DNA from: a bacterium UBP4_UBA6127
GTDB lineage: Bacteria; UBP4; UBA4092
Direction: 5' to 3'
DNA length: 64,000 nt
Assembly: GCA_002428325.1 (NCBI GenBank)
Contig: DIVR01000021.1
Coordinates: forward strand, 34,486 to 98,485
Below, piece by piece: positions 4,888 through 58,429 of the stretch. The stretch's first letter is position 1, and every line of letters starts with the position of its first letter. Below the pieces are notes generated by a model, which made no database searches, was not told the origin of the DNA, and worked only from the letters and a program-made list of their open reading frames with translations. Both the position numbers and the translations under genes were made by a program.

Positions 4888-6366
4888 TTATTCGTATAAC
4901 ATCCACTCTTTAGATGTGCCAGTAACAAAGAATGAACCACCCATAACCGTCTGTTTAGTCTCCAAAACAAAGTTATTAGGACCATCCGGAGGTGAATAAA
5001 CTCTGAGCAACTCGCTGATACTATCAGTAATATAAACATTGCCCACTGCATCCAGATCAATAGCTCTCGGAGTAGCACTAGCCCATGGTACCAGGGTCAA
5101 TTGGGTACTCAGATTTCCCAAAGGAAGAGGCAACGGACAAGATCCCAGTCCAGGGCCACCTTCTGTTAAGGCAAAAAGCATTCTTCCATGGTTTTCATCC
5201 AGAGCAAATCCACCAATCATTCCTCTGATGGGATCAGGAGTTGTATTACTATTTCCTGTTGAAAGGGAATCCCACAAAAGAGTTGACCCTGTAGAATCAA
5301 AAACCACTAAGCAGGGATAATCAGTTCCCGCAGAACGATAATTAGCTACATACCAATTCCCGGCAGAGTCGCGACGGACAGTTCCCGGGGTAGAATTAAC
5401 TAAGATACCTAAAGTAGAATCCCCCGGATAGGTTGTAAAGGTACTGTCGTTAATAGCTACTGTTGGAGCGGTAGTCCATGGAAAGGGTCCATTCCCCACA
5501 GGATATTTCCAAATGCTGCATTGCTGAATATCTCCAGCGGCAGGTAAATCTTCATCCTGGGTATAAAGGACCGTCTGGGTACCTGTTCCTTCTACATATA
5601 CCCCGGAGACGCTTCCATGCAGACCAGCGACCAATCCGGATGACAACTGTCCAGTGGTATCAAAGACCATCGTGAAATTACCGGACAAATCAGGTTCCGC
5701 CAAAAAAACATTTCCATGAGAATCTGACCAGTCAGCAATCCAGAGTCTACCGTCCGGACCCACAAAAAGGTGATAGGGACTGGATGTACCACTTGTCCCC
5801 CAATTAATACCTCCAGAACGGGCCACTGTTCCAATCGAAAGAGGATCAGACCCATCAGGATATAAGGCATATATGCCATCACCCATTAAACGGCCTGAGG
5901 CTGTCGGAGTCGTTCGGGTGTTGGTAATATAAACCATACCAAAATAGGGATCACCGCTATTTTTATTAACAGCACATCCTCGAGGACTCTCAAACTGGAA
6001 GATACTTTCAGCATCATTGGAAATAATATTCCATGTAGTATGCCCCACATTATCCACAGCAATAATCCTGAAACCATAATTGGCTGTCGTAGTGGCTGAG
6101 CCTCCCTCTGTTTTACCATCCCAGAATACTTGGTTATATCCTTTGAAAGGTGTACTTTCCAAGTTGCGAACAACAGTGGTATCTGGTAAAGGGCCATATA
6201 TTTGAACAGTTACAGCACTACAGGTTTCGTTTAATCGATAAGTAATTTTGGGAGCCACTCCGGTTGTGTTAACCGAAACAGAAAAAGGCATGACATTCGC
6301 AAAAACTGCACTGGTGAAAATTAACAATAAAAATACGCTCAAACAACATACAAAAATCTTTTTCAT
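4888..6366 (-). CDS. Secreted hypothetical protein, probable beta-propeller fold
   Basis: Signal peptide MKKIFVCCLSVFLLLIFTSAVFA. Gly/Ser/Thr/Asp-rich with repeated motifs (...GRLWIADWSDSHGNVF..., ...GNWYVANYRSAG...). No catalytic motif recognised. Confidence 0.55.
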   Translation of the reverse strand: MKKIFVCCLSVFLLLIFTSAVFANVMPFSVSVNTTGVAPKITYRLNETCSAVTVQIYGPLPDTTVVRNLESTPFKGYNQVFWDGKTEGGSATTTANYGFRIIAVDNVGHTTWNIISNDAESIFQFESPRGCAVNKNSGDPYFGMVYITNTRTTPTASGRLMGDGIYALYPDGSDPLSIGTVARSGGINWGTSGTSSPYHLFVGPDGRLWIADWSDSHGNVFLAEPDLSGNFTMVFDTTGQLSSGLVAGLHGSVSGVYVEGTGTQTVLYTQDEDLPAAGDIQQCSIWKYPVGNGPFPWTTAPTVAINDSTFTTYPGDSTLGILVNSTPGTVRRDSAGNWYVANYRSAGTDYPCLVVFDSTGSTLLWDSLSTGNSNTTPDPIRGMIGGFALDENHGRMLFALTEGGPGLGSCPLPLPLGNLSTQLTLVPWASATPRAIDLDAVGNVYITDSISELLRVYSPPDGPNNFVLETKQTVMGGSFFVTGTSKEWMLYE

Positions 6367-10705: not shown

Positions 10706-11326
10706 TTACTCTTCAGTTACTACACCTTTTTGAGAACGAATAATATCTCCATTTGAAACCGTTCCGTTACTAGGGTCATAAACCGCTAAACCATCAAAAA
10801 AACCATGGCCGGCAGCATCTGTATAAGTTGCCACTCGATCCGGTCCCGCTGAACTTAATCGCCAAAAACCATATTTACGAATCGCCGTTTGAACCTCTAC
10901 TGTATCGCCTGGATGCGGAAACCAAGCTTCAGCCTGGGCAGAATTATGCCCTTTCAATTCCGCGTCATAATTAATATAACGATACCGGGTTCCCGGAGTC
11001 CCCGGAATTGCTGATGGCATTCCCTGCCGGAATAGATCATTGATTAATCCAGTAGAAATATAGGCAATAGGAGTAGAAATAACAGAGGGCAGATACCAGG
11101 GCCAGCCAGTCGGGTCAATATCATCAGGATAAACATTATAGTCCACAAAATAAGATTCTAAAGCTGTTGTTAAAGTCTGTTCTTCTCCTTTGACCCGCGA
11201 TACCCTGGCTCGCGTCTGGGCAGCTAAAAAGTTCGGGATAGCAATCGCCGCCAAAATAGCAATAATCGCCACAACAATCAATAATTCAATTAAGGTAAAA
11301 CCACTTTTTTCACTTTTCTTCATCAT
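10706..11326 (-). CDS. GspG-like prepilin/pseudopilin (prepilin-type N-terminal cleavage/methylation domain protein), paralog 1
   Basis: N-terminus MMKKSEKSGFTLIELLIVVAIIAILAAIAIPNF matches the class III signal peptide with the G^FTLIELL cleavage/methylation motif. GspG-like ...SSAGPD... segment. C-terminus ...YDPSNGTVSNGDIIRSQKG is shared with the two neighbouring paralogs. Confidence 0.8.
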   Translation of the reverse strand: MMKKSEKSGFTLIELLIVVAIIAILAAIAIPNFLAAQTRARVSRVKGEEQTLTTALESYFVDYNVYPDDIDPTGWPWYLPSVISTPIAYISTGLINDLFRQGMPSAIPGTPGTRYRYINYDAELKGHNSAQAEAWFPHPGDTVEVQTAIRKYGFWRLSSAGPDRVATYTDAAGHGFFDGLAVYDPSNGTVSNGDIIRSQKGVVTEE

Positions 11327-11433
11327 TACACCTCCTTCCCTGAAAACCTAATAAGTATCACAAGCATCCGCTTCCGTCAACAATTTATTTCATAATCACA
11401 CTACAAAATTGCTTAAATCTTTCCTATCATTAA

Positions 11434-11468
11434 CAAAAAAGAGGCATTCCCCTTTAGGAAATGCCTCC
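11434..11468 (-). terminator. Rho-independent (bidirectional-looking) terminator for pseudopilin gene 2
   Basis: Stem GAGGCATT / AATGCCTC flanked by A6 / T6 runs. On the minus strand the hairpin is followed by TTTTTTGTT. Confidence 0.75.
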
Positions 11469-11487
11469 GAAAAAAATTTACATAATA

Positions 11488-12066
11488 TTACCGAGGGCTG
11501 GAATCTTCATTAGGATTTTTCTGAGACCTCATGATATCCCCATTGGAAACGGTTCCATTGGTTGGATCATACGGAAAAAGAATGTTGTAGGAATATCCTT
11601 GATAAGATAAATAACCTGTCGGCCCAAAAATCCGGTCTGGACCGGATGAACTCAATCTCCACTTCCCATAAAAACTACCATAAGCCTCTGCAGCCGCACT
11701 TCCCTTGATATACAGCGAATCCACTTCCATATAACGGTATCTCATGTAGGTAGCTGCACTGTCTGGAGCCCGGAAAGGGTCCAAAAAGGAATTAGAACTT
11801 AAATAGGCTATCGGTGTGGTGATCACATTGGGGACATACTGAGGCGCTGTCACAAAAGGCTCAACACACCAAGGGTATTCATTATTATCAACAAAATAGC
11901 TCTCTAAAGCGGTGGCCAATGATTGCAACTCTCCCTTAGCTCGTGATACTTTAGCTCTGGTCTGAGCGGCCAAAAAGTTGGGAATAGCAATGGCCGCCAA
12001 AATCGCAATAATCGCCACGACAATCAACAACTCAATCAGGGTAAAACCTTTTTTATTACTTTTCAT
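11488..12066 (-). CDS. GspG-like prepilin/pseudopilin, paralog 2
   Basis: N-terminus MKSNKKGFTLIELLIVVAIIAILAAIAIPNFLAAQTRAKVSRAKGELQSLATALESY is nearly identical to paralog 3. C-terminus ...YDPTNGTVSNGDIMRSQKN. Confidence 0.8.
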   Translation of the reverse strand: MKSNKKGFTLIELLIVVAIIAILAAIAIPNFLAAQTRAKVSRAKGELQSLATALESYFVDNNEYPWCVEPFVTAPQYVPNVITTPIAYLSSNSFLDPFRAPDSAATYMRYRYMEVDSLYIKGSAAAEAYGSFYGKWRLSSSGPDRIFGPTGYLSYQGYSYNILFPYDPTNGTVSNGDIMRSQKNPNEDSSPR

Positions 12067-12564
12067 TCAATATTCACCTCCTCTATTTTTTTATGTTTAA
12101 TTAACTGTCTTTTTCGAAATTGCTTAGAATTTACCAATTTTGTAACCTTCTGTCAATAGTCCTACAAAAAAGAATCTTCTCATCAGGTTTACCGGAATGG
12201 GAAATACTGATGTAGATATTTTATATATTATTGAGATAATAGTGGTTACGAGATACTCACCATTCTCACAAATACTCCTTGAAAAAACAGCATAATAATC
12301 ATTTTTATTAATATAGACTCAATAGACCTATTAAGGCATAAATCTTTTTTCTGATTAATAGACAGGGGATGATGACCACAAGCGTATACCGAGAAAGCAA
12401 TATAGGTTTCACCTTCAGCCTCCATCAGATTCTAGAGGGAAAAGCCTCTCATTGAAGTATCCTTCAACAAAAGGAATTTGTTCGGAGAGGTAACGGAGAG
12501 GGTCCGACCCTCTTTCCCTTGTTAAGCGACCTAGATCATAATGGTAATGAAACACATTGAGCCA

Positions 12565-12596
12565 TAAAAAATCGGCATCCGTTAATGGATACCGAT
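12565..12596 (-). terminator. Rho-independent terminator for pseudopilin gene 3
   Basis: On the minus strand ATCGGTATCC-attaac-GGATGCCGAT is followed by TTTTTTATGG, about 25 nt after the stop. Confidence 0.7.
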
Positions 12597-12619
12597 AAAT
12601 CAACAGGGTATAGAATGAA

Positions 12620-13225
12620 TCATTCATAATTATTCGGGTGTTTCTGGCTGCGAATGATATCTCCATTGGAGACAGTTCCATTACTGGGGTCATAAGCTAT
12701 GGTAATGTCCCATAAACCAAAAGGGGTACCTTTCCCATCCGCATCCGGAGTATAGCCTTTATCCGGCCCCAGAGAAACTATACGCCAACCCCCAAAAGCG
12801 TTTTGGTAAGTTGCTGTATAAATATTCCTCCATCCTAAGGAACCATCTCCGGTATTAGAATATCGATATCGAGTTAATAAAGGGTCATCTCCAGGATTTA
12901 ACGATCCCCGGAAAGGGTCTTTCAATAAATTGGATGAAATATAAGCTATCGGAGTGGTTACCTCATTGGGCATATACCAATAATAAGCTTGATTCGACCA
13001 TGTTTCTGATCCATCCTGGGGCCAAACATTATTATCCACATAATAAGATTCCAACGCTGTTGCCAATGTCTGCAGTTCTCCCTTAGCCCGGGAGACTTTT
13101 GCCCGGGTCTGGGCCGCCAGGAAATTAGGAATTGCTATCGCCGCTAAAATGGCTATGATCGCCACCACAATCAACAATTCAATCAAGGTAAATCCTTTAT
13201 TCTTTCTTTTCATGATCTTAAGCAC
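12620..13225 (-). CDS. GspG-like prepilin/pseudopilin, paralog 3
   Basis: The ORF starts MLKIMKRKNKGFTLIELLIVVAIIAILAAIAIPNF; the real start is probably the MKRKNKGF Met at about 13213. ...VSLGPDKG... segment and C-terminus ...YDPSNGTVSNGDIIRSQKH. Confidence 0.8.
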   Translation of the reverse strand: MLKIMKRKNKGFTLIELLIVVAIIAILAAIAIPNFLAAQTRAKVSRAKGELQTLATALESYYVDNNVWPQDGSETWSNQAYYWYMPNEVTTPIAYISSNLLKDPFRGSLNPGDDPLLTRYRYSNTGDGSLGWRNIYTATYQNAFGGWRIVSLGPDKGYTPDADGKGTPFGLWDITIAYDPSNGTVSNGDIIRSQKHPNNYE

Positions 13226-13476
13226 CTCCTTTCCAGTTATTTAATTTCTCACTTAATCACTATCTACATCTCTTTCCTCATTATCAGAATCCCTCTTCCT
13301 TTTGTCAAGTCTCTTATCTAAAGAGTCCATTTAATCACCCTTTTTTACCTATTTTCCTGTGGTATAATTCAAGGAGAAATATTGATAAATTCAGTCAATA
13401 ATAGAGTTTTTTTCCAAACCCAAGCAGCGGGGAAGAAAAAAGGAGCTGTTTAGGGAAGGAAGAGAGGGATCCAGGA

Positions 13477-31766: not shown

Positions 31767-31792
31767 AGTCTTTTGACAGCTGTCAAAAAACT
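31767..31792. repeat. Palindromic motif AGTCTTTTGACAGCTGTCAAAAAACT (copy 1 of 2)
   Basis: The 18-bp perfect palindrome TTTTGACAGCTGTCAAAA sits in the intergenic region upstream of the ferredoxin-nitroreductase gene. A second copy lies at 58406..58429. Confidence 0.6.
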
Positions 31793-32663: not shown

Positions 32664-33935
32664 TCATTCTTTGTTCAAAATAGTTAATTGCTTAGCCGGG
32701 ATATCATATTTACAGGTATCTATTTTCCCCATTTTATTACACCTAAAGTAAATCATCTTTGAATCAGCAGAAAATCCCATAAACGTGGCATATTCCTTTT
32801 TCACTGAATCATGGGAAGCAAGGTAAACAGCATCGGCTTTTCTTGTTTGAAGATGAAGCAGATAGATATTATTACCAATATTGCCTGCCAATAATTTTCC
32901 ATTATTCGATATCTTCCAATTTTCCATTGTCAGCTCATATTCACCCGCAAAAGGGTCAACAAAACCCCAGCGAATCACCTTTTTTTGCTTCAGGCTCCCC
33001 GGAATCCACTTTTCCAGAGAATAATTTCTCTTGTTATTCTTACCCGTTTCAGCTGACAGAATATAACCAATGCCCTTAGACAGAAAAAAAGTTTTCTCGG
33101 AAGATTCCAACTCTGCTCCTGTTGAAGATAACCAATTTCTGCGAAGGGTATCTTCTGTTGTTTCACCAGTGAGGAGGTTGACTCGGAATAAAGATTTTAA
33201 AATGTAAAATGATTCCTTCCCGTTGAATAAATAGGGATTATAAGGCTGCATAGGATCCAGGGCATAACTCACGGGAGGGTTGGCATTGATTATTTCTTCC
33301 GGGATGGCATCAATGGATACTGTTGTAAAATAAACATTATTAGGTTCTAATGGGTCCAGACAGTAATGAAATATATAATCCTTTATATCTTTTGTCAGTA
33401 TCTTATTTTCCCCCGTCTTGGTATCAAGGAGATACAGGGTATCCCGGTGAGTTGAATTGAAATGATTATAGATTCTGATAAATTCGGGATCAGATGATAT
33501 TAATGAATGCCATTTATCAGGCAGTTTTCCATCCTTGGGGAGCATTGAACGAAGGATAATATGCCGAGAATCAAAACACCAGTCAGCCTCAAAGGGTGCT
33601 TCCGATTCCCACACTGTTTGTAACTCGTTTGCCTGTATATCAAAGACTTTAAGAACGAATTTCTTATATTGTCTTTCCCCATAAATCCCCGGGACCCCGG
33701 TTGTTCCATCGGTATATACGATAAATATTTTTTGATGATTGGGTGATAATTCTTCATCCCCAAACCATATGGGGAGCACCCATCCCTTATCGGGCTTTAT
33801 TACATGAACAGCTCCTTTATCATCAATGATATTAACTTCATCTTTTTCATTGATGACGAATGTATTCCCAATGGTTAACTGGTATAACAGTAGGATACAG
33901 ATAAATTGAATTTGAATTTTAAACAATTTCCCCAT
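32664..33935 (-). CDS. Secreted hypothetical protein
   Basis: Hydrophobic N-terminal signal (MGKLFKIQIQFICILLLYQLTIGNTFV). 423 aa. No recognisable catalytic motif. Beta-rich, so possibly a propeller. Confidence 0.45.
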   Translation of the reverse strand: MGKLFKIQIQFICILLLYQLTIGNTFVINEKDEVNIIDDKGAVHVIKPDKGWVLPIWFGDEELSPNHQKIFIVYTDGTTGVPGIYGERQYKKFVLKVFDIQANELQTVWESEAPFEADWCFDSRHIILRSMLPKDGKLPDKWHSLISSDPEFIRIYNHFNSTHRDTLYLLDTKTGENKILTKDIKDYIFHYCLDPLEPNNVYFTTVSIDAIPEEIINANPPVSYALDPMQPYNPYLFNGKESFYILKSLFRVNLLTGETTEDTLRRNWLSSTGAELESSEKTFFLSKGIGYILSAETGKNNKRNYSLEKWIPGSLKQKKVIRWGFVDPFAGEYELTMENWKISNNGKLLAGNIGNNIYLLHLQTRKADAVYLASHDSVKKEYATFMGFSADSKMIYFRCNKMGKIDTCKYDIPAKQLTILNKE

Positions 33936-34072
33936 ATTGCTTCCCTCCCTGTCTTTTTACTGCACTTGGCCATCACCGAGGAATACAATGGGTAATTCGA
34001 ATAATTCATAAAAATATCAGGCTCATCAAAATGTCTTTTTTACTTCTATTTACTCCATTCTTTTAGGGCTCT

Positions 34073-34603
34073 TTATTCAATCTTCTTAACCTGGATATTA
34101 TAAATTGCGGTAAACCCCACCATCATCCAACCCAAAAAAACAAAGAACATTGTCATCGAAGAATAGTAAAGGATATCCTTCAGATGGAAATAATCTATTT
34201 TTTCCTGGAGAGATAAATACATATTAGCGAAGGATAGGATAGGCTTCACCATAAAACCTATTCCTAAAAAGATAAAATACATGATGATAAATGATACGCC
34301 ATAATTTAGTCGAGAAGGAACCGGTATGTCTTTAACCGCTGGATATACTGATAAAAGTTCCTTTGCTTCCCGGTACATCCTTTTTGATGTTGCCGCTGTC
34401 ACAGTTGTTCCGATAGCTAAAGCTATCAATGATGGCAATAACTCTATGAAAGTACTGTATAGGTATAATATTAGCCCGTACTCTAATAAGAATAAAATGA
34501 GGATGAAGAATTTTAAGATATAGCCATCAAGAATATCTTTCCTGTCTATAATCTGATGCTTATAGGCCATCGGTTCAAATAATATTTGAGCAAGCTTTTT
34601 CAT
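34073..34603 (-). CDS. Hypothetical membrane protein
   Basis: 176 aa with 4-5 hydrophobic helices. No motif recognised. Confidence 0.4.
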   Translation of the reverse strand: MKKLAQILFEPMAYKHQIIDRKDILDGYILKFFILILFLLEYGLILYLYSTFIELLPSLIALAIGTTVTAATSKRMYREAKELLSVYPAVKDIPVPSRLNYGVSFIIMYFIFLGIGFMVKPILSFANMYLSLQEKIDYFHLKDILYYSSMTMFFVFLGWMMVGFTAIYNIQVKKIE

Positions 34604-34804
34604 TTTATTTTCCCTCAGTTTCCCTATCCCCTTTGTTACCTTCCCTTATCAAGATAAAATAACACTTTATATCTGTCAATCTTTTTCAACCTTGGCAAGC
34701 CCCTGGGCCGGAAAAACCTTCCCTGGAAAACCAATTTCTCTATAAAGAACTCATTTCTGAGGAGTTATCTTCATTTTTCGTCCCAAGAGCCATCGGAGTG
34801 AGAC

Positions 34805-34872
34805 CCAGGCTGTAGCCATCAGGTTGGGTCCCGCTTCGTTGTAAAAGGAGACTGAAATAGGATAAAGGGAGT
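34805..34872. repeat. Conserved intergenic element, copy A (GAGACCCAGGCTG-N8-CAGGyTGGGTCCC followed by a GA-rich tail)
   Basis: About 65 nt, highly similar to 45191..45258. Contains an imperfect inverted repeat CCCAGGCTG / CAGGTTGGG. Confidence 0.5.
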
Positions 34873-34981
34873 GGAAACGGAGGGGACTGGCAGAAAATCC
34901 CCCATATCCTGGGCAAAAAGAGTTCACAGAAAAGAGTGATTCTGAGAAAATGGGATAAACAAATCAGGATGGAACCCTTGG

Positions 34982-35365: not shown

Positions 35366-35446
35366 ATTTCCCCATTGCGTCAGCCGTCCCTCTCCCCCTA
35401 AAATGAATAACACTTAGGATAAAAACTCAAGATTGATAATAAACCC

Positions 35447-36652
35447 ATGCGATTTATTCTTTATTACCCTCGAAACAGGCTTCATTCGATAAATGTCCTG
35501 GCAGGGGCCCTGGAAACAGAGCCTCGGCTCGGAGATATGGATATCCGGTTTTGCCGAGGTGAAGAGACTTTTCATGCTGAGATGGAGTCTTCAGCCAAAG
35601 AAAATATCCCCTCGGTCATTGGATGTTCCTTATTTTCAGTTGAATTTGCCAAGTATTCCCGGTTGATAAATGGGTGCAAACAGAAATATCCAGCCCCCCC
35701 CTTTCTCTATATTGCCGGAGGGCCCCATGCCACCGCCGAACCGGAAGACACTCTTCGGGGAGGATTTGACCTGGCCTTCATCGGGGAAGCTGAGAAAACC
35801 CTGGTGGATTTTTTCCTCTGCCTTCGGGAAAACAGAGACTATCGGTTTTTGAAAGGTTTGGCATGGATGGAGGGAAATCAGTTTCATCATTCAGGCAGGC
35901 CCGACCCGGTGAACCTGGACCATTACCCTTTCTACTGCACCCGATACCGGAAGCTTAACCCTATCGAGATTACCCGGGGCTGTATCTATGCCTGTAAATA
36001 CTGCCAGAGCGCCTATCTGCATAAAGCCAATTTCAGGCATCGTTCGGTGGAGAATATCTGTGAACTGCTGAAAACCATGAAGACCAAAGGACGGGTGGAT
36101 GTCCGATTCAGCACTCCCAGCGCCTTGTCTTATGGTTCCAGCAACACTCAGGTCCATCTGGAGAGGGTTGAACAACTGCTGAGTTCCATCCGGGAAGTGG
36201 TCCAGGAAAAAGGCCGAATCTATTTTGGCACTTTTCCTTCGGAAATCAGGCCTGAACATATCACTTTTGAATCCCTGCGGCTCATCAAAAAATACTGCAA
36301 TAACGATAACCTTATCATCGGCGCCCAGTCCGGCAGCCAGAAAATCCTGGACCTTTGCCATCGGGGGCATACGGTGGAAGATGTCCGAAGGGCTGTCAGG
36401 CTTTCCCGGGAAGCCGGTTTCGGGGTGAATGTGGATATCATCTTCGGACTCCCGGGGGAGACTGACCAGGATGCCCGGCTTACCCTCAAATTGATGGAGG
36501 AGTTGATCTCCTGGGGAGCCTGGATTCACAGCCATTATTTCATGCCGCTGCCGGGAACTCCTTACCAGAATGCCTCTTCTGCCGAGTTGTCCGATGAGAC
36601 CCTACAACTGATTCGGAAAGCCGAACATACCGGGAAATTTTACGGCCATTGA
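35447..36652 (+). CDS. B12-binding domain-containing radical SAM protein (third copy, shorter)
   Basis: Rossmann-like N-terminal half, then radical SAM motif RGCIYACKYCQSAY (CxxxCxxC). 401 aa. Confidence 0.65.
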   Translation: MRFILYYPRNRLHSINVLAGALETEPRLGDMDIRFCRGEETFHAEMESSAKENIPSVIGCSLFSVEFAKYSRLINGCKQKYPAPPFLYIAGGPHATAEPEDTLRGGFDLAFIGEAEKTLVDFFLCLRENRDYRFLKGLAWMEGNQFHHSGRPDPVNLDHYPFYCTRYRKLNPIEITRGCIYACKYCQSAYLHKANFRHRSVENICELLKTMKTKGRVDVRFSTPSALSYGSSNTQVHLERVEQLLSSIREVVQEKGRIYFGTFPSEIRPEHITFESLRLIKKYCNNDNLIIGAQSGSQKILDLCHRGHTVEDVRRAVRLSREAGFGVNVDIIFGLPGETDQDARLTLKLMEELISWGAWIHSHYFMPLPGTPYQNASSAELSDETLQLIRKAEHTGKFYGH

Positions 36653-44163: not shown

Positions 44164-45078
44164 TTAATAAAGATTCCAGTCACGAACATCCAGTGCTGAA
44201 TCAACACCTGTCGCATAACCTGTTTTATAGGTTGTATTATTATAGACACCGCTACGCCACATCTTAAAATTACCACCGCCTAAATAAACAACGGAGCAAA
44301 AGTAGTTACGCGAGTCATTCCAGGTTCCGGCGGTTCCAAGAGAACCGACATTGTTCACAGGGAATTCAGCGCTGGTGAAGTTATAACCATCTGCTGAAGT
44401 CGAATAATGAAGAGCAGTATTATATGAATAAGACCATAACCGCCAATCATTATCGCCGATTTTAACCAGAGAACACGGCTGCTCACTGATACCTGTCATA
44501 GCTGGGGCTAATCCAGTGGTACTGAAACTAACACCATCATATGAGGTAGCAATAGCGAAAGTGCTACTGGGACCCGCCAGGATCATCCGGTAAATACCAT
44601 TATCATAATTTACCGCATGACCATCAGCATATTGTCCCCCGTAACTCAAGGTAGTCGTATCTTCAGTGAAGGTCACACCATCACTGGAAACCGCAGTACG
44701 GTTGGGGTAAGGAGACACATTCGTGGTGTAATAGATCCGATAAGGCTTGGCAGCAGAGGCAACATAAATCACATTCGGCCGACTACCGGTAATATTGAGT
44801 CCTGTACACGTTCCATCACCCAAGGTAGTCCAAGTGATTCCATCTGAAGATTCAGCTACTCCTATCACTCCATTATAGCTGGCTGTATCAAACCACATTT
44901 TATATGGTTTGGTCCAAGAAGCATTATAAACCACTGAGGGCATATAAGCTCTTGAAAATCCGGACGGTATTGGAACGGTTAAGGGATTGCTGGCATAATC
45001 AGTCCAGGTGATATTCTGGGCGGCAAAGGCTCCCACAGCTAAACAGGCAATCGCTAAAAAAGAAATTACTTTCTTCAA
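44164..45078 (-). CDS. Secreted protein with repeated beta-propeller blade-like motifs (GH43/GH32-like or BNR-like fold, function unknown)
   Basis: Signal peptide MKKVISFLAIACLAVGAFAA. Recurrent motifs ...KPYKMWFDT..., ...KPYRIYYTT..., ...GIYRMILAG..., ...DWRLWSYSY..., ...NFKMWRSGVY... suggest five blades. Confidence 0.4.
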   Translation of the reverse strand: MKKVISFLAIACLAVGAFAAQNITWTDYASNPLTVPIPSGFSRAYMPSVVYNASWTKPYKMWFDTASYNGVIGVAESSDGITWTTLGDGTCTGLNITGSRPNVIYVASAAKPYRIYYTTNVSPYPNRTAVSSDGVTFTEDTTTLSYGGQYADGHAVNYDNGIYRMILAGPSSTFAIATSYDGVSFSTTGLAPAMTGISEQPCSLVKIGDNDWRLWSYSYNTALHYSTSADGYNFTSAEFPVNNVGSLGTAGTWNDSRNYFCSVVYLGGGNFKMWRSGVYNNTTYKTGYATGVDSALDVRDWNLY

Positions 45079-45190
45079 TTATTTCACCCCCTTTCCTTGA
45101 GGCAGTCAAATTTCTCGATATTTTAACATAAATGTTACATATATGTTAAATCTATGTAAATTTTATATAGAAAAGGAACGGAGGAGAAAG

Positions 45191-45258
45191 GGAGCCAGAC
45201 CCAGGCTGATGGTTACAGGCTGGGTCCCAATCCGTCAAAGAAGGGGAAAGAAATAAGT
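45191..45258. repeat. Conserved intergenic element, copy B
   Basis: gagccagacccaggctgatggttacaggctgggtcccaatccgtcaaagaaggggaaagaaataag. Same orientation as copy A and intergenic. Confidence 0.5.
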
Positions 45259-45356
45259 GTGAAAAGGGGGTTCAGAGGAAGTAAACCCTTTCATCTTAAA
45301 CAACTTATATAGTTGTTATCATTAGCGTTATGTAGCATGTAACATGATTAAGAGAA

Positions 45357-45839
45357 TCAATCCAGACCCGTCTTAAGGACTTGAACAGGTGTTTTGGCCA
45401 GTTCATCCAGGATTTGTTGTTTTAGAGCGCGGGATTCATCAGATGAAGGGCCATAAATTTGGGGATTCAGGTAGTCAGGCTCACACTGCCAGACCGGGAG
45501 AAGCGGCTGGGGATCATTAAAATGCCGGGGAAATAGATGCCAATGGATATGGGATACCTGGTTTCCCAGGAGTTCATAATTCAATTTTCTGGGATTAACC
45601 GCTTTGAAAACAGCTTCCGAGAGGAATGTTAATTCTTCCAGGAAATGAATTCTAAAATCCCTATCAAGGAGATGTAGTTCAGCAGAATCCACCTTACAGA
45701 GAAAAATGGTATATCCCCTATAAAACTGGGAAGGACCCAGCATGGCAAACCCGGTTTCAAGTTCGGCAATCAGCCGGGGATGTTTATTTTCCCGGATAGA
45801 AATAATTTGGCGGCATATTTCACATGGAACAGAAGACAT
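45357..45839 (-). CDS. HIT family protein (histidine triad nucleotide hydrolase/transferase)
   Basis: N-terminal CEIC zinc motif and histidine triad VSHIHWHLFPRH. 160 aa. Confidence 0.8.
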   Translation of the reverse strand: MSSVPCEICRQIISIRENKHPRLIAELETGFAMLGPSQFYRGYTIFLCKVDSAELHLLDRDFRIHFLEELTFLSEAVFKAVNPRKLNYELLGNQVSHIHWHLFPRHFNDPQPLLPVWQCEPDYLNPQIYGPSSDESRALKQQILDELAKTPVQVLKTGLD

Positions 45840-58405: not shown

Positions 58406-58429
58406 TCTTTTTGACAGCTGTCAAAAAGA
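58406..58429. repeat. Palindromic motif TCTTTTTGACAGCTGTCAAAAAGA (copy 2 of 2, 24-bp perfect palindrome)
   Basis: Intergenic, between the aspS 3' end and the Rhs fragment. Same TGACAGCTGTCA core as copy 1. Confidence 0.6.

Follow-up and report, generated by a model that had tools for sequence, protein, structure and literature searches.

The closest described counterparts of the element analysed here are the REP sequences and REPINs, repetitive palindromes outside genes that RAYT (Y1) transposases mobilise. These palindromes are species-specific and extragenic, compensatory changes across their hairpins are common, and they probably act as folded single strands (PMC3116915). Families of bacterial stem-loop sequences have furthermore been catalogued (PMC2267715) and small repeats reviewed (PMC3184786); these families are lineage-restricted and intergenic, have no function assigned to them and were found by their repetition. 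The core sites of tyrosine recombinases (dif, 11-6-11; lox, 13-8-13; FRT) provide a further point of comparison. Small loop inversions are also known in hairpins of non-coding DNA, namely in plastid spacers. Here we describe a two-copy stem-loop element in a stretch of 64,000 nucleotides (hereafter the window) from the bacterium UBP4_UBA6127, a member of an uncultured and poorly sampled lineage, whose species occurs in methanogenic cultures that degrade toluene and naphtha, as well as in a chlorinated-solvent consortium. The element is a genuine, non-random feature and probably represents a stem-loop repeat of an ordinary, lineage-specific kind, of which two traits are curious: a flipped loop within otherwise identical cores, and a placement flanking a glycan cluster.

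A repeat search of the window revealed a 65-nt direct repeat with 71 % ungapped identity between its two plus-strand copies, each beginning with a lead of 7 nt, which is followed by an imperfect hairpin and a purine-rich tail of 29 nt each (Table 1). The local alignment of the two 65-mers scores 56, against a mean of 14.9 and a maximum of 25 among shuffled sequences (0/500 shuffles reaching the observed score). Within the window, the core pattern GACCCAGGCTG-N7-CAGGYTGGGTCCC is matched only at 34802-34832 and 45198-45228, even where up to three mismatches are allowed, and at this tolerance it is matched in none of 100 dinucleotide shuffles. Both hairpin cores have 11-nt arms, made up of 7 bp, a G.G mismatch and 3 bp, which enclose a 7-nt loop. 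At copy A an outer helix joins the core via an A.C mismatch, extending the hairpin to 43 nt. When the hairpin is used to fix the register, the tails of the two copies agree at 20/32 positions (permutation P about 2e-5), while the flanks outside the 65 nt have no significant similarity between the copies (left, P = 0.27; right, P = 0.51). The similarity thus ends at the unit edges, and the unit does not belong to a more extensive duplicated gene fragment, which the first-pass annotation had named as the finding that would overturn it. The frame that runs through copy A is without a start codon in the window and its differences among strains are mostly non-synonymous. The same annotation had described two near-identical, same-strand copies in intergenic regions of 280-380 bp, each an imperfect hairpin followed by a purine-rich tail; the repeat search, pattern scan and shuffle tests bear this out, the hairpins fold as described and the spacers measure 378 bp (34604-34981) and 278 bp (45079-45356). 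Its start for copy A, 34805, needs correction, as this position falls inside the 5' arm of a homologous unit that begins ten positions earlier. A second, weaker hairpin could be distinguished by eye after each tail (GGGGA..UCCCC at 34880-34905 for copy A; AAAGGG..CCCUUU at 45263-45290 for copy B), followed in each case by CAU(A/C)U, with no significant similarity between A and B in this part.

Table 1. Features of the two repeat copies and of the promoters predicted beside them (positions are those of the window)
Feature	Position	Strand	Downstream gene	Basis
Copy A, whole unit, lead GGAGTGA	34795..34859	+		repeat search, alignments, shuffle test
Copy A core hairpin, GACCCAG-G-CTG [TAGCCAT] CAG-G-TTGGGTC	34802..34830	+		sequence, pattern scan, folds
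Copy A extended stem, outer 6 bp GGAGUG/CGCUUC, 16 bp in total	34795..34837	+		RNA and DNA folds, pair counts
Copy A purine-rich tail, CCCGCTTCGTTGTAAAAGGAGACTGAAATA	34831..34859	+		tail comparison with B in fixed register
Copy B, whole 65-nt unit	45191..45255	+		repeat search, alignment, shuffle test
Copy B core hairpin, GACCCAG-G-CTG [ATGGTTA] CAG-G-CTGGGTC	45198..45226	+		sequence, pattern scan, folds
Copy B purine-rich tail, CCCAATCCGTCAAAGAAGGGGAAAGAAATA	45227..45255	+		tail comparison
Predicted sigma-70-like promoter, TTGACA-17-TATCTT	34679-34651	minus	176-aa gene	
Predicted sigma-70-like promoter, TTCACA-17-tgGAAAAT	34923-34951	plus	Zincin_1	
Predicted sigma-70-like promoter, TTAACA-18-tgTAAAAT	45149-45120	minus	304-aa gene	

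Seven sister-strain assemblies, with radical SAM proteins 97 % identical to that of the window, contain both loci in the same arrangement. In L019-L024, core A reads GACCCAGGCTG-TAACCAT-CAGGCTGGGTC and core B GACCCAGGCTG-ATGGTTA-CAGGCTGGGTC. The arms, together with the adjacent A and CCC, are identical between the copies of these strains and form a 32-nt core (AGACCCAGGCTG-N7-CAGGCTGGGTCCC) in which A equals B save for the flipped loop, while the tails are identical at 20/32 positions. The loop of copy A in the sister strains is the exact reverse complement of that of copy B (7/7 positions), including the loop of copy B in the window, whereas the direct identity of the two loops is 1/7. Since both copies carry the G.G mismatch on the plus strand and have co-linear tails, the flip is confined to the central 13 nt, CTG-loop-CAG. 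This resembles the plastid loop inversions, where likewise only the loop and innermost stem are inverted between otherwise co-linear copies, but there orthologous sites of different species are concerned and here paralogous copies in one bacterial genome. The simplest account of the flip is that it arose incidentally through mutation of a near-palindrome. In the window strain, copy A carries two derived changes, an A-to-G substitution in the loop (also present in L031) and a C-to-T substitution in the stem, which creates the one G.U pair of its core. When the window was compared with L019 over a 96-nt query, 2/3 differences fell in the core. Considering the identity of the arms against a divergence of around 35 % in the tails, the core is either constrained at the sequence level or homogenised.

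A hairpin of the same build occupies the same place upstream of Zincin_1 in the sister lineage represented by L025 and L026, the radical SAM proteins of which are 72 % identical to that of the window. It reads GCUUGGA-G-CCGAGG-A-UG[AAAAGAA]CA-G-CCUCGG-G-UCUAAGC, in which helices of 7, 6 and 2 bp, from the outside inwards, are separated first by a G.G and then by an A.G mismatch and enclose a 7-nt loop, and can be aligned with copy A without gaps over 43 columns. On this alignment 84 % of cells are paired, as opposed to 16-57 % when the partners are slid by one to three columns. Four stem pairs are changed on both sides relative to L025 and four on one side through G.U, so that pairing is kept although the arm sequence differs at 8/22 positions; four double-sided pairs were reached in 14/500 shuffles. 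The loops of the two lineages also differ (TAACCAT and AAAAGAA). The compensatory substitutions in the stem, for which the first-pass annotation had proposed to look, are therefore present in a related lineage, but with effectively two or three independent sequences they are suggestive and not statistical proof. Since the same architecture is found at locus A of the sister lineage with a different sequence and compensatory changes, it may be suggested that the hairpin is kept by selection for base pairing. Locus B presents a different picture. In L027, which is 94 % identical to L026 over SIMPL, the spacer and promoter region are kept but there is no hairpin, or at most a decayed right arm, and a search through 38 kb of that lineage revealed no other hairpin of the L025 type. 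In L030, a relative of 53 % identity, Zincin_1 directly adjoins its neighbour, with no spacer between them. As a separate observation, L026 (around position 6064) and L027 (around 18316) are rearranged about 60 nt upstream of SIMPL, where one of them has Zincin_1 and the radical SAM gene, and the other a 76-aa gene and gatA/gatB.

The conservation of A alone in the sister lineage, and a strain variation that is not reduced within the element relative to the remaining spacer, would be consistent with an old 65-nt segmental duplication that persists as a neutral relic, in which the hairpin would have a function at A alone (for example, in absorbing supercoils as a cruciform between divergent promoters) and copy B would have no role. 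This is nevertheless improbable, as A and B have 0 differences in 22 arm positions (26 with the adjacent conserved bases) where the tails have diverged by around 35 %, a degree of arm identity to which we assign a probability of about 1e-4 under equal neutral drift, and the loop is identical apart from its flip.

The plus strand folds more stably than the minus strand at copy A, at copy B and in L025, both as RNA and as DNA (for example, -28.3 vs -20.7, -38.1 vs -29.9 and -14.7 vs -7.7 kcal/mol). This is attributable to the purine.purine mismatches and the several G.U or G.T pairs of the plus strand, and the advantage is small when counted over cells. Fold z-scores are modest for the window copies (-1.2 to -2.3) and stronger for the L025 hairpin (-4.1 as RNA; -6.5 as DNA). 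A long-range helix between an upstream pyrimidine-rich stretch and the purine-rich tail was considered at copy A and rejected, having no counterpart at B.

The window is chromosomal and rich in genes for envelope polysaccharides, namely those of a Wzm/Wzt-type ABC transporter, glycosyltransferases, methyltransferases, PMT_2, Wzy_C and a lipid A acyltransferase. Hydrogenase maturation genes and the AspRS gene are also present. Copy A is flanked by divergent genes, with a 176-aa membrane protein encoded on the minus strand (34073-34603) and an operon of Zincin_1, a TIGR04013 radical SAM protein and SIMPL on the plus strand (from 34982). Copy B lies between two minus-strand genes, coding for a HIT protein (45357-45839) and a 304-aa protein with a signal peptide (44164-45078). 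The 10.4 kb between the copies encodes Zincin_1, radical SAM, SIMPL, 2-hydroxyacid dehydrogenase, PMT_2, GH39, Wzy_C, a 330-aa membrane protein and the 304-aa protein. This segment is not a genomic island, as its GC content is ordinary and it is syntenic in relatives. The left-hand neighbour of copy A varies among strains, while the element stays. A low-GC stretch (0.38-0.41) at 32664-34603, which carries the genes of a 423-aa protein and of the 176-aa membrane protein, is strain-variable: other strains have a 195- or 202-aa gene in its place, and L030 lacks it. The right-hand end of this accessory-gene hot spot is about 115 nt to the left of hairpin A. The start of the radical SAM gene (35381-35447) probably lies 22 codons upstream of the listed ATG, with the protein being 423 aa long in sister strains as compared to 401 aa here. 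Elsewhere in the window (10706-13229), three paralogous genes of around 200 aa with prepilin-type N_methyl domains (two annotated) share 211-nt repeats of 73-74 % identity.

Sigma-70-like promoters were predicted for three of the neighbouring genes (Table 1). The promoter blocks of the 176-aa and Zincin_1 genes are conserved in L025, and a counterpart of that of the 304-aa gene (TTACAT-17-TATAAT) could be recognised by eye in L027. If these predicted promoters are real, both hairpins lie upstream of them and outside the mRNAs of all neighbouring genes. The suggestion of the first-pass annotation that the element could be a leader of the minus-strand genes for membrane and exported proteins is thereby weakened, with the best promoters located between element and gene and conserved in relatives, and with the element persisting at A beside different left-hand genes, while its view that the copies are not plain terminators holds. 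No terminator-like site was found in either spacer, copy A is located between divergent genes, and T-tract terminators do occur elsewhere in the window. As the copies lie between transcription units and upstream of conserved sigma-70-like promoters, the element is neither a terminator nor an obvious 5' leader. Two further sequence features were observed in these and other spacers. Inverted repeats TGTTACAT/ATGTAACA (45122-45150 and about 45330-45345) overlap the predicted promoter of the 304-aa secreted-protein gene and are a likely operator, given their conservation upstream of homologues in two other lineages (L027, 9900-9960; L028, 2320-2360). The palindrome TTTTGACAGCTGTCAAAA(A) occurs in two intergenic copies (31767-31792 and 58406-58429), 3' of the 2-ph_phosp gene and 3' of AspRS, and looks like an operator or a bidirectional terminator.

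It is possible, if rather unlikely, that the element functions as a structured RNA of the plus strand, in which case A would form a stem-loop ahead of the Zincin_1/TIGR04013 radical SAM/SIMPL operon, either within a long leader or within a separate small RNA. Such a hairpin could serve in stability, processing or protein binding, and B could be a second RNA, the loop of which (AUGGUUA) kisses that of A (UAACCAU). The helix is maintained through compensatory and G.U-compatible changes, and the better-folding plus strand is at A the sense strand of the Zincin_1 operon. Copy A also stays with Zincin_1 whatever the left-hand gene, and precedes it in L025 and L026 as well. The loops are exact complements in the sister strains, and the A-to-G change in the loop of the window strain and L031 would keep the loop-loop pair as G.U. 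However, no plus-strand promoter-like site was found upstream of either copy and no terminator after it, and the best candidate promoter of Zincin_1, conserved in L025, is downstream of the hairpin. Copy B faces no plus-strand gene, the loop is not conserved between lineages, locus B of the sister lineage is without the hairpin, the z-scores of the window copies are modest and Rfam provides no match, even at E-values of up to 10.

The position of both copies upstream of predicted promoters and outside transcripts, about 107 bp from the -35 element of Zincin_1 for A and about 65 bp from that of the 304-aa gene for B, is consistent with a double-stranded palindromic 11-7-11 site. Such a site would bind a single protein, whether an activator, a repressor or an architectural protein, upstream of two inward-facing boundary operons. 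In sister strains A and B agree at all 22 arm positions despite the divergence of the tails, a flipped spacer that is not contacted would be irrelevant to a symmetric dimer, and the possible further member in L037 (see below) also precedes a TATAAT. Set against this, base pairing spans 43 nt both at A and in L025 and includes G.T wobbles, which are meaningless for duplex recognition, while in L025 8/22 arm positions differ with pairing kept. An arm of 11 fully conserved bp furthermore exceeds the typical half-site, no regulator gene is adjacent, and the distance to the promoter is not conserved, with 42 nt to the -10 element in L025 as compared to 109 nt in the window. A protein-binding site thus appears unlikely.

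Further copies were sought in around 81 kb of the source genome (the window and the flanks L032 and L034) by means of nhmmer, a fuzzy regular expression and a covariance model with filters off, and no third copy was found. Against Rfam, nothing in the whole window reached the gathering score, and at E-values of up to 10 both spacers and the L025 spacer produced only chance-level matches of snoRNA type (E 0.5-7). Exact-pattern scans returned 1 match in GTDB representatives, 15 in JGI metagenome contigs and 0 in IMG/VR, collections that do not contain the source organism, although its contigs are present in ENA, Logan and NCBI; the flanks were absent in each case and all matches are attributable to chance. 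The window itself belongs to the 220-kb ENA contig ERZ27315036:k141_343422. No match was obtained by blastn in plasmid and phage collections. Domain searches and Pfam lists revealed no RAYT/Y1 transposase, integrase, recombinase or other mobility gene in the window. A covariance model built from these hairpins (R1) recovered only A and B in the window with filters off, and over eight other loci recovered L025 and one new match, at 10449-10490 of L037 (17.6 bits; rough E about 0.02). This hairpin, GGAGTAACCCACAGCAGC-TCGGA-GCTGCTGTGGGTCTGCTCC, comprises 42 nt with a perfect stem of 12 bp (z about -6.5) and is located in an unrelated divergent spacer, about 117 nt upstream of TATAAT, in a relative with 79 % AspRS identity. 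It has an outer motif in common with copy A (GGAGT.A.ACCCA ... TGGGTC..C.CC), for which we estimate around 0.5 chance occurrences in the DNA searched, the expression for this motif having been written after the match was seen. The L037 hairpin is thus a marginal match, and only a probable third member of the family.

Three Logan assemblies (k=31) break in or at the cores, while assemblies of longer k pass through them. The L022 contig begins with the first base of core A and stops at base 20 of core B, where L031 also ends. L003 extends one base beyond core B and its neighbour L039 starts at base 2 of that core, with exactly the 31-mer GACCC..GGGTCCC missing between them. This pattern would be expected either if more than one context is present in the sample, through more copies or heterogeneity, or if hairpins disturb the short-read graph. 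Models of inversion, loop flip and fold-back fit at most some of the contig ends, only under particular graph conventions in which contigs exclude branching nodes, and none fits all.

That one contig spans core A to mid core B and that two others end in core B could be read as traces of inverted core sites, or relics of such sites, at which a site-specific recombinase inverts the 10.4-kb segment. The resemblance to tyrosine-recombinase cores extends to inverted 11-bp arms around an asymmetric 7-bp spacer (11-7-11) and to the opposite orientation of the spacers; the reverse complement of core B equals core A at 27/29 positions, and the copies bracket one gene cluster. In contrast to dif, lox and FRT, however, there is no recombinase gene in the window, and no recombinant junction was found, with one and the same arrangement in each of the seven assemblies spanning A and in every assembly spanning B. 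The flanks and the G.G asymmetry of the arms are direct and not inverted, and inversion would not rewire the boundary operons, as their promoters are located within the segment. Simple junction models with fixed-base breaks fail to reproduce the contig ends under either treatment of branching nodes, and by eye the arms do not resemble the dif/XerD arm consensus. Recombination sites are accordingly the least credible of the readings considered, and highly improbable. Scarcely more probable is the notion that the hairpins are a functional matched pair bracketing the 10.4-kb envelope-glycan cluster with a loop flip that has been selected, whether as kissing plus-strand RNAs that couple the boundary operons or as inverted recombination or looping sites that invert or insulate the cluster.

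Several candidates could be set aside on individual features. A MITE is contradicted by the internal location of the inverted repeat (positions 8-36 of the 65-nt unit) and by flanks without a common direct repeat, and an integron attC site by the lack of a GTTRRRY/RYYYAAC pair around either hairpin, as judged by eye, and of an integrase. No fit to a sigma-54 promoter was seen by eye, and two small ORFs (54 aa in some strains, ending in loop A; 37 aa, crossing B) are neither conserved nor supported. A plain terminator, MITE, attC site, gene fragment and known RNA family are excluded by the features tested.

Of the three candidates of the first-pass annotation (a structured RNA or leader, a transcription-factor site and a dispersed repeat), the last fits best, but with only two demonstrable copies, and the evidence does not decide among them. 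We tentatively favour, at somewhat short of an even chance, a low-copy, lineage-restricted and dispersed stem-loop repeat of REP-like type, with a folded single strand as its active form. The 65-nt module would lodge in spacers between transcription units and would work, or spread and be homogenised, in its folded single-stranded form, with the plus strand favoured through its purine.purine mismatches and G.U or G.T wobbles. The fold may be recognised by a single trans-acting factor or be subject to gene conversion, and the loop flip would then arise from the near-palindromic core through intrastrand switching or short-patch conversion in an inverted alignment; a direct regulatory role on the neighbouring genes would not be required. 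As in REPs and REPINs, the element is a short, extragenic, imperfect palindrome with a fixed mismatch, the sequence of which is specific to the genome and the architecture common to relatives, with compensatory changes across the hairpin (PMC3116915). The core is identical within the genome and diverged with compensation in the sister lineage, and the element occurs at unrelated loci, is absent or decayed at locus B of the sister lineage and may have a further member at the unrelated L037 locus. The plus strand folds better in all three independent hairpins, and the breaks of k=31 contigs at the cores hint at further contexts. What may count against a REP-like identity is that two copies were found in around 81 kb, where whole REP-bearing genomes have tens to hundreds. 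Such genomes also have a RAYT gene, usually REP-flanked, and within the around 81 kb covered no Y1_Tnp match was obtained on the window genes and no other mobility gene was found in the window. There is furthermore no GTAG-type head and no inverted doublet, each locus having a single hairpin with no second inverted copy nearby, and the unit here includes a directional 29-nt purine-rich tail. Moreover, a host function would account equally well for locus A keeping both its position and its structure across lineages, the match in L037 is marginal, and the contig breaks could be a technical effect of the hairpins. The stem-loop sequence families (PMC2267715; PMC3184786) are comparable in being lineage-restricted, intergenic and without assigned function, and in being found by repetition, but differ from the element in its very low copy number, the bracketing of one gene cluster and the mutually reverse-complementary loops.

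As judged from sequence comparison, the hairpin is real and appears to be evolutionarily maintained, with functions that stand at the level of candidates, and it looks like an ordinary lineage-restricted repeat. A matched RNA pair or an invertible cluster would be the more interesting outcome. If the REP-like reading is true, the element adds a family of small stem-loop repeats from a barely sampled uncultured lineage that inhabits methanogenic hydrocarbon- and solvent-degrading consortia. Such a family would be useful mainly as a marker for annotation and strain typing, and as a caution that short-k assemblies may break at these sites.
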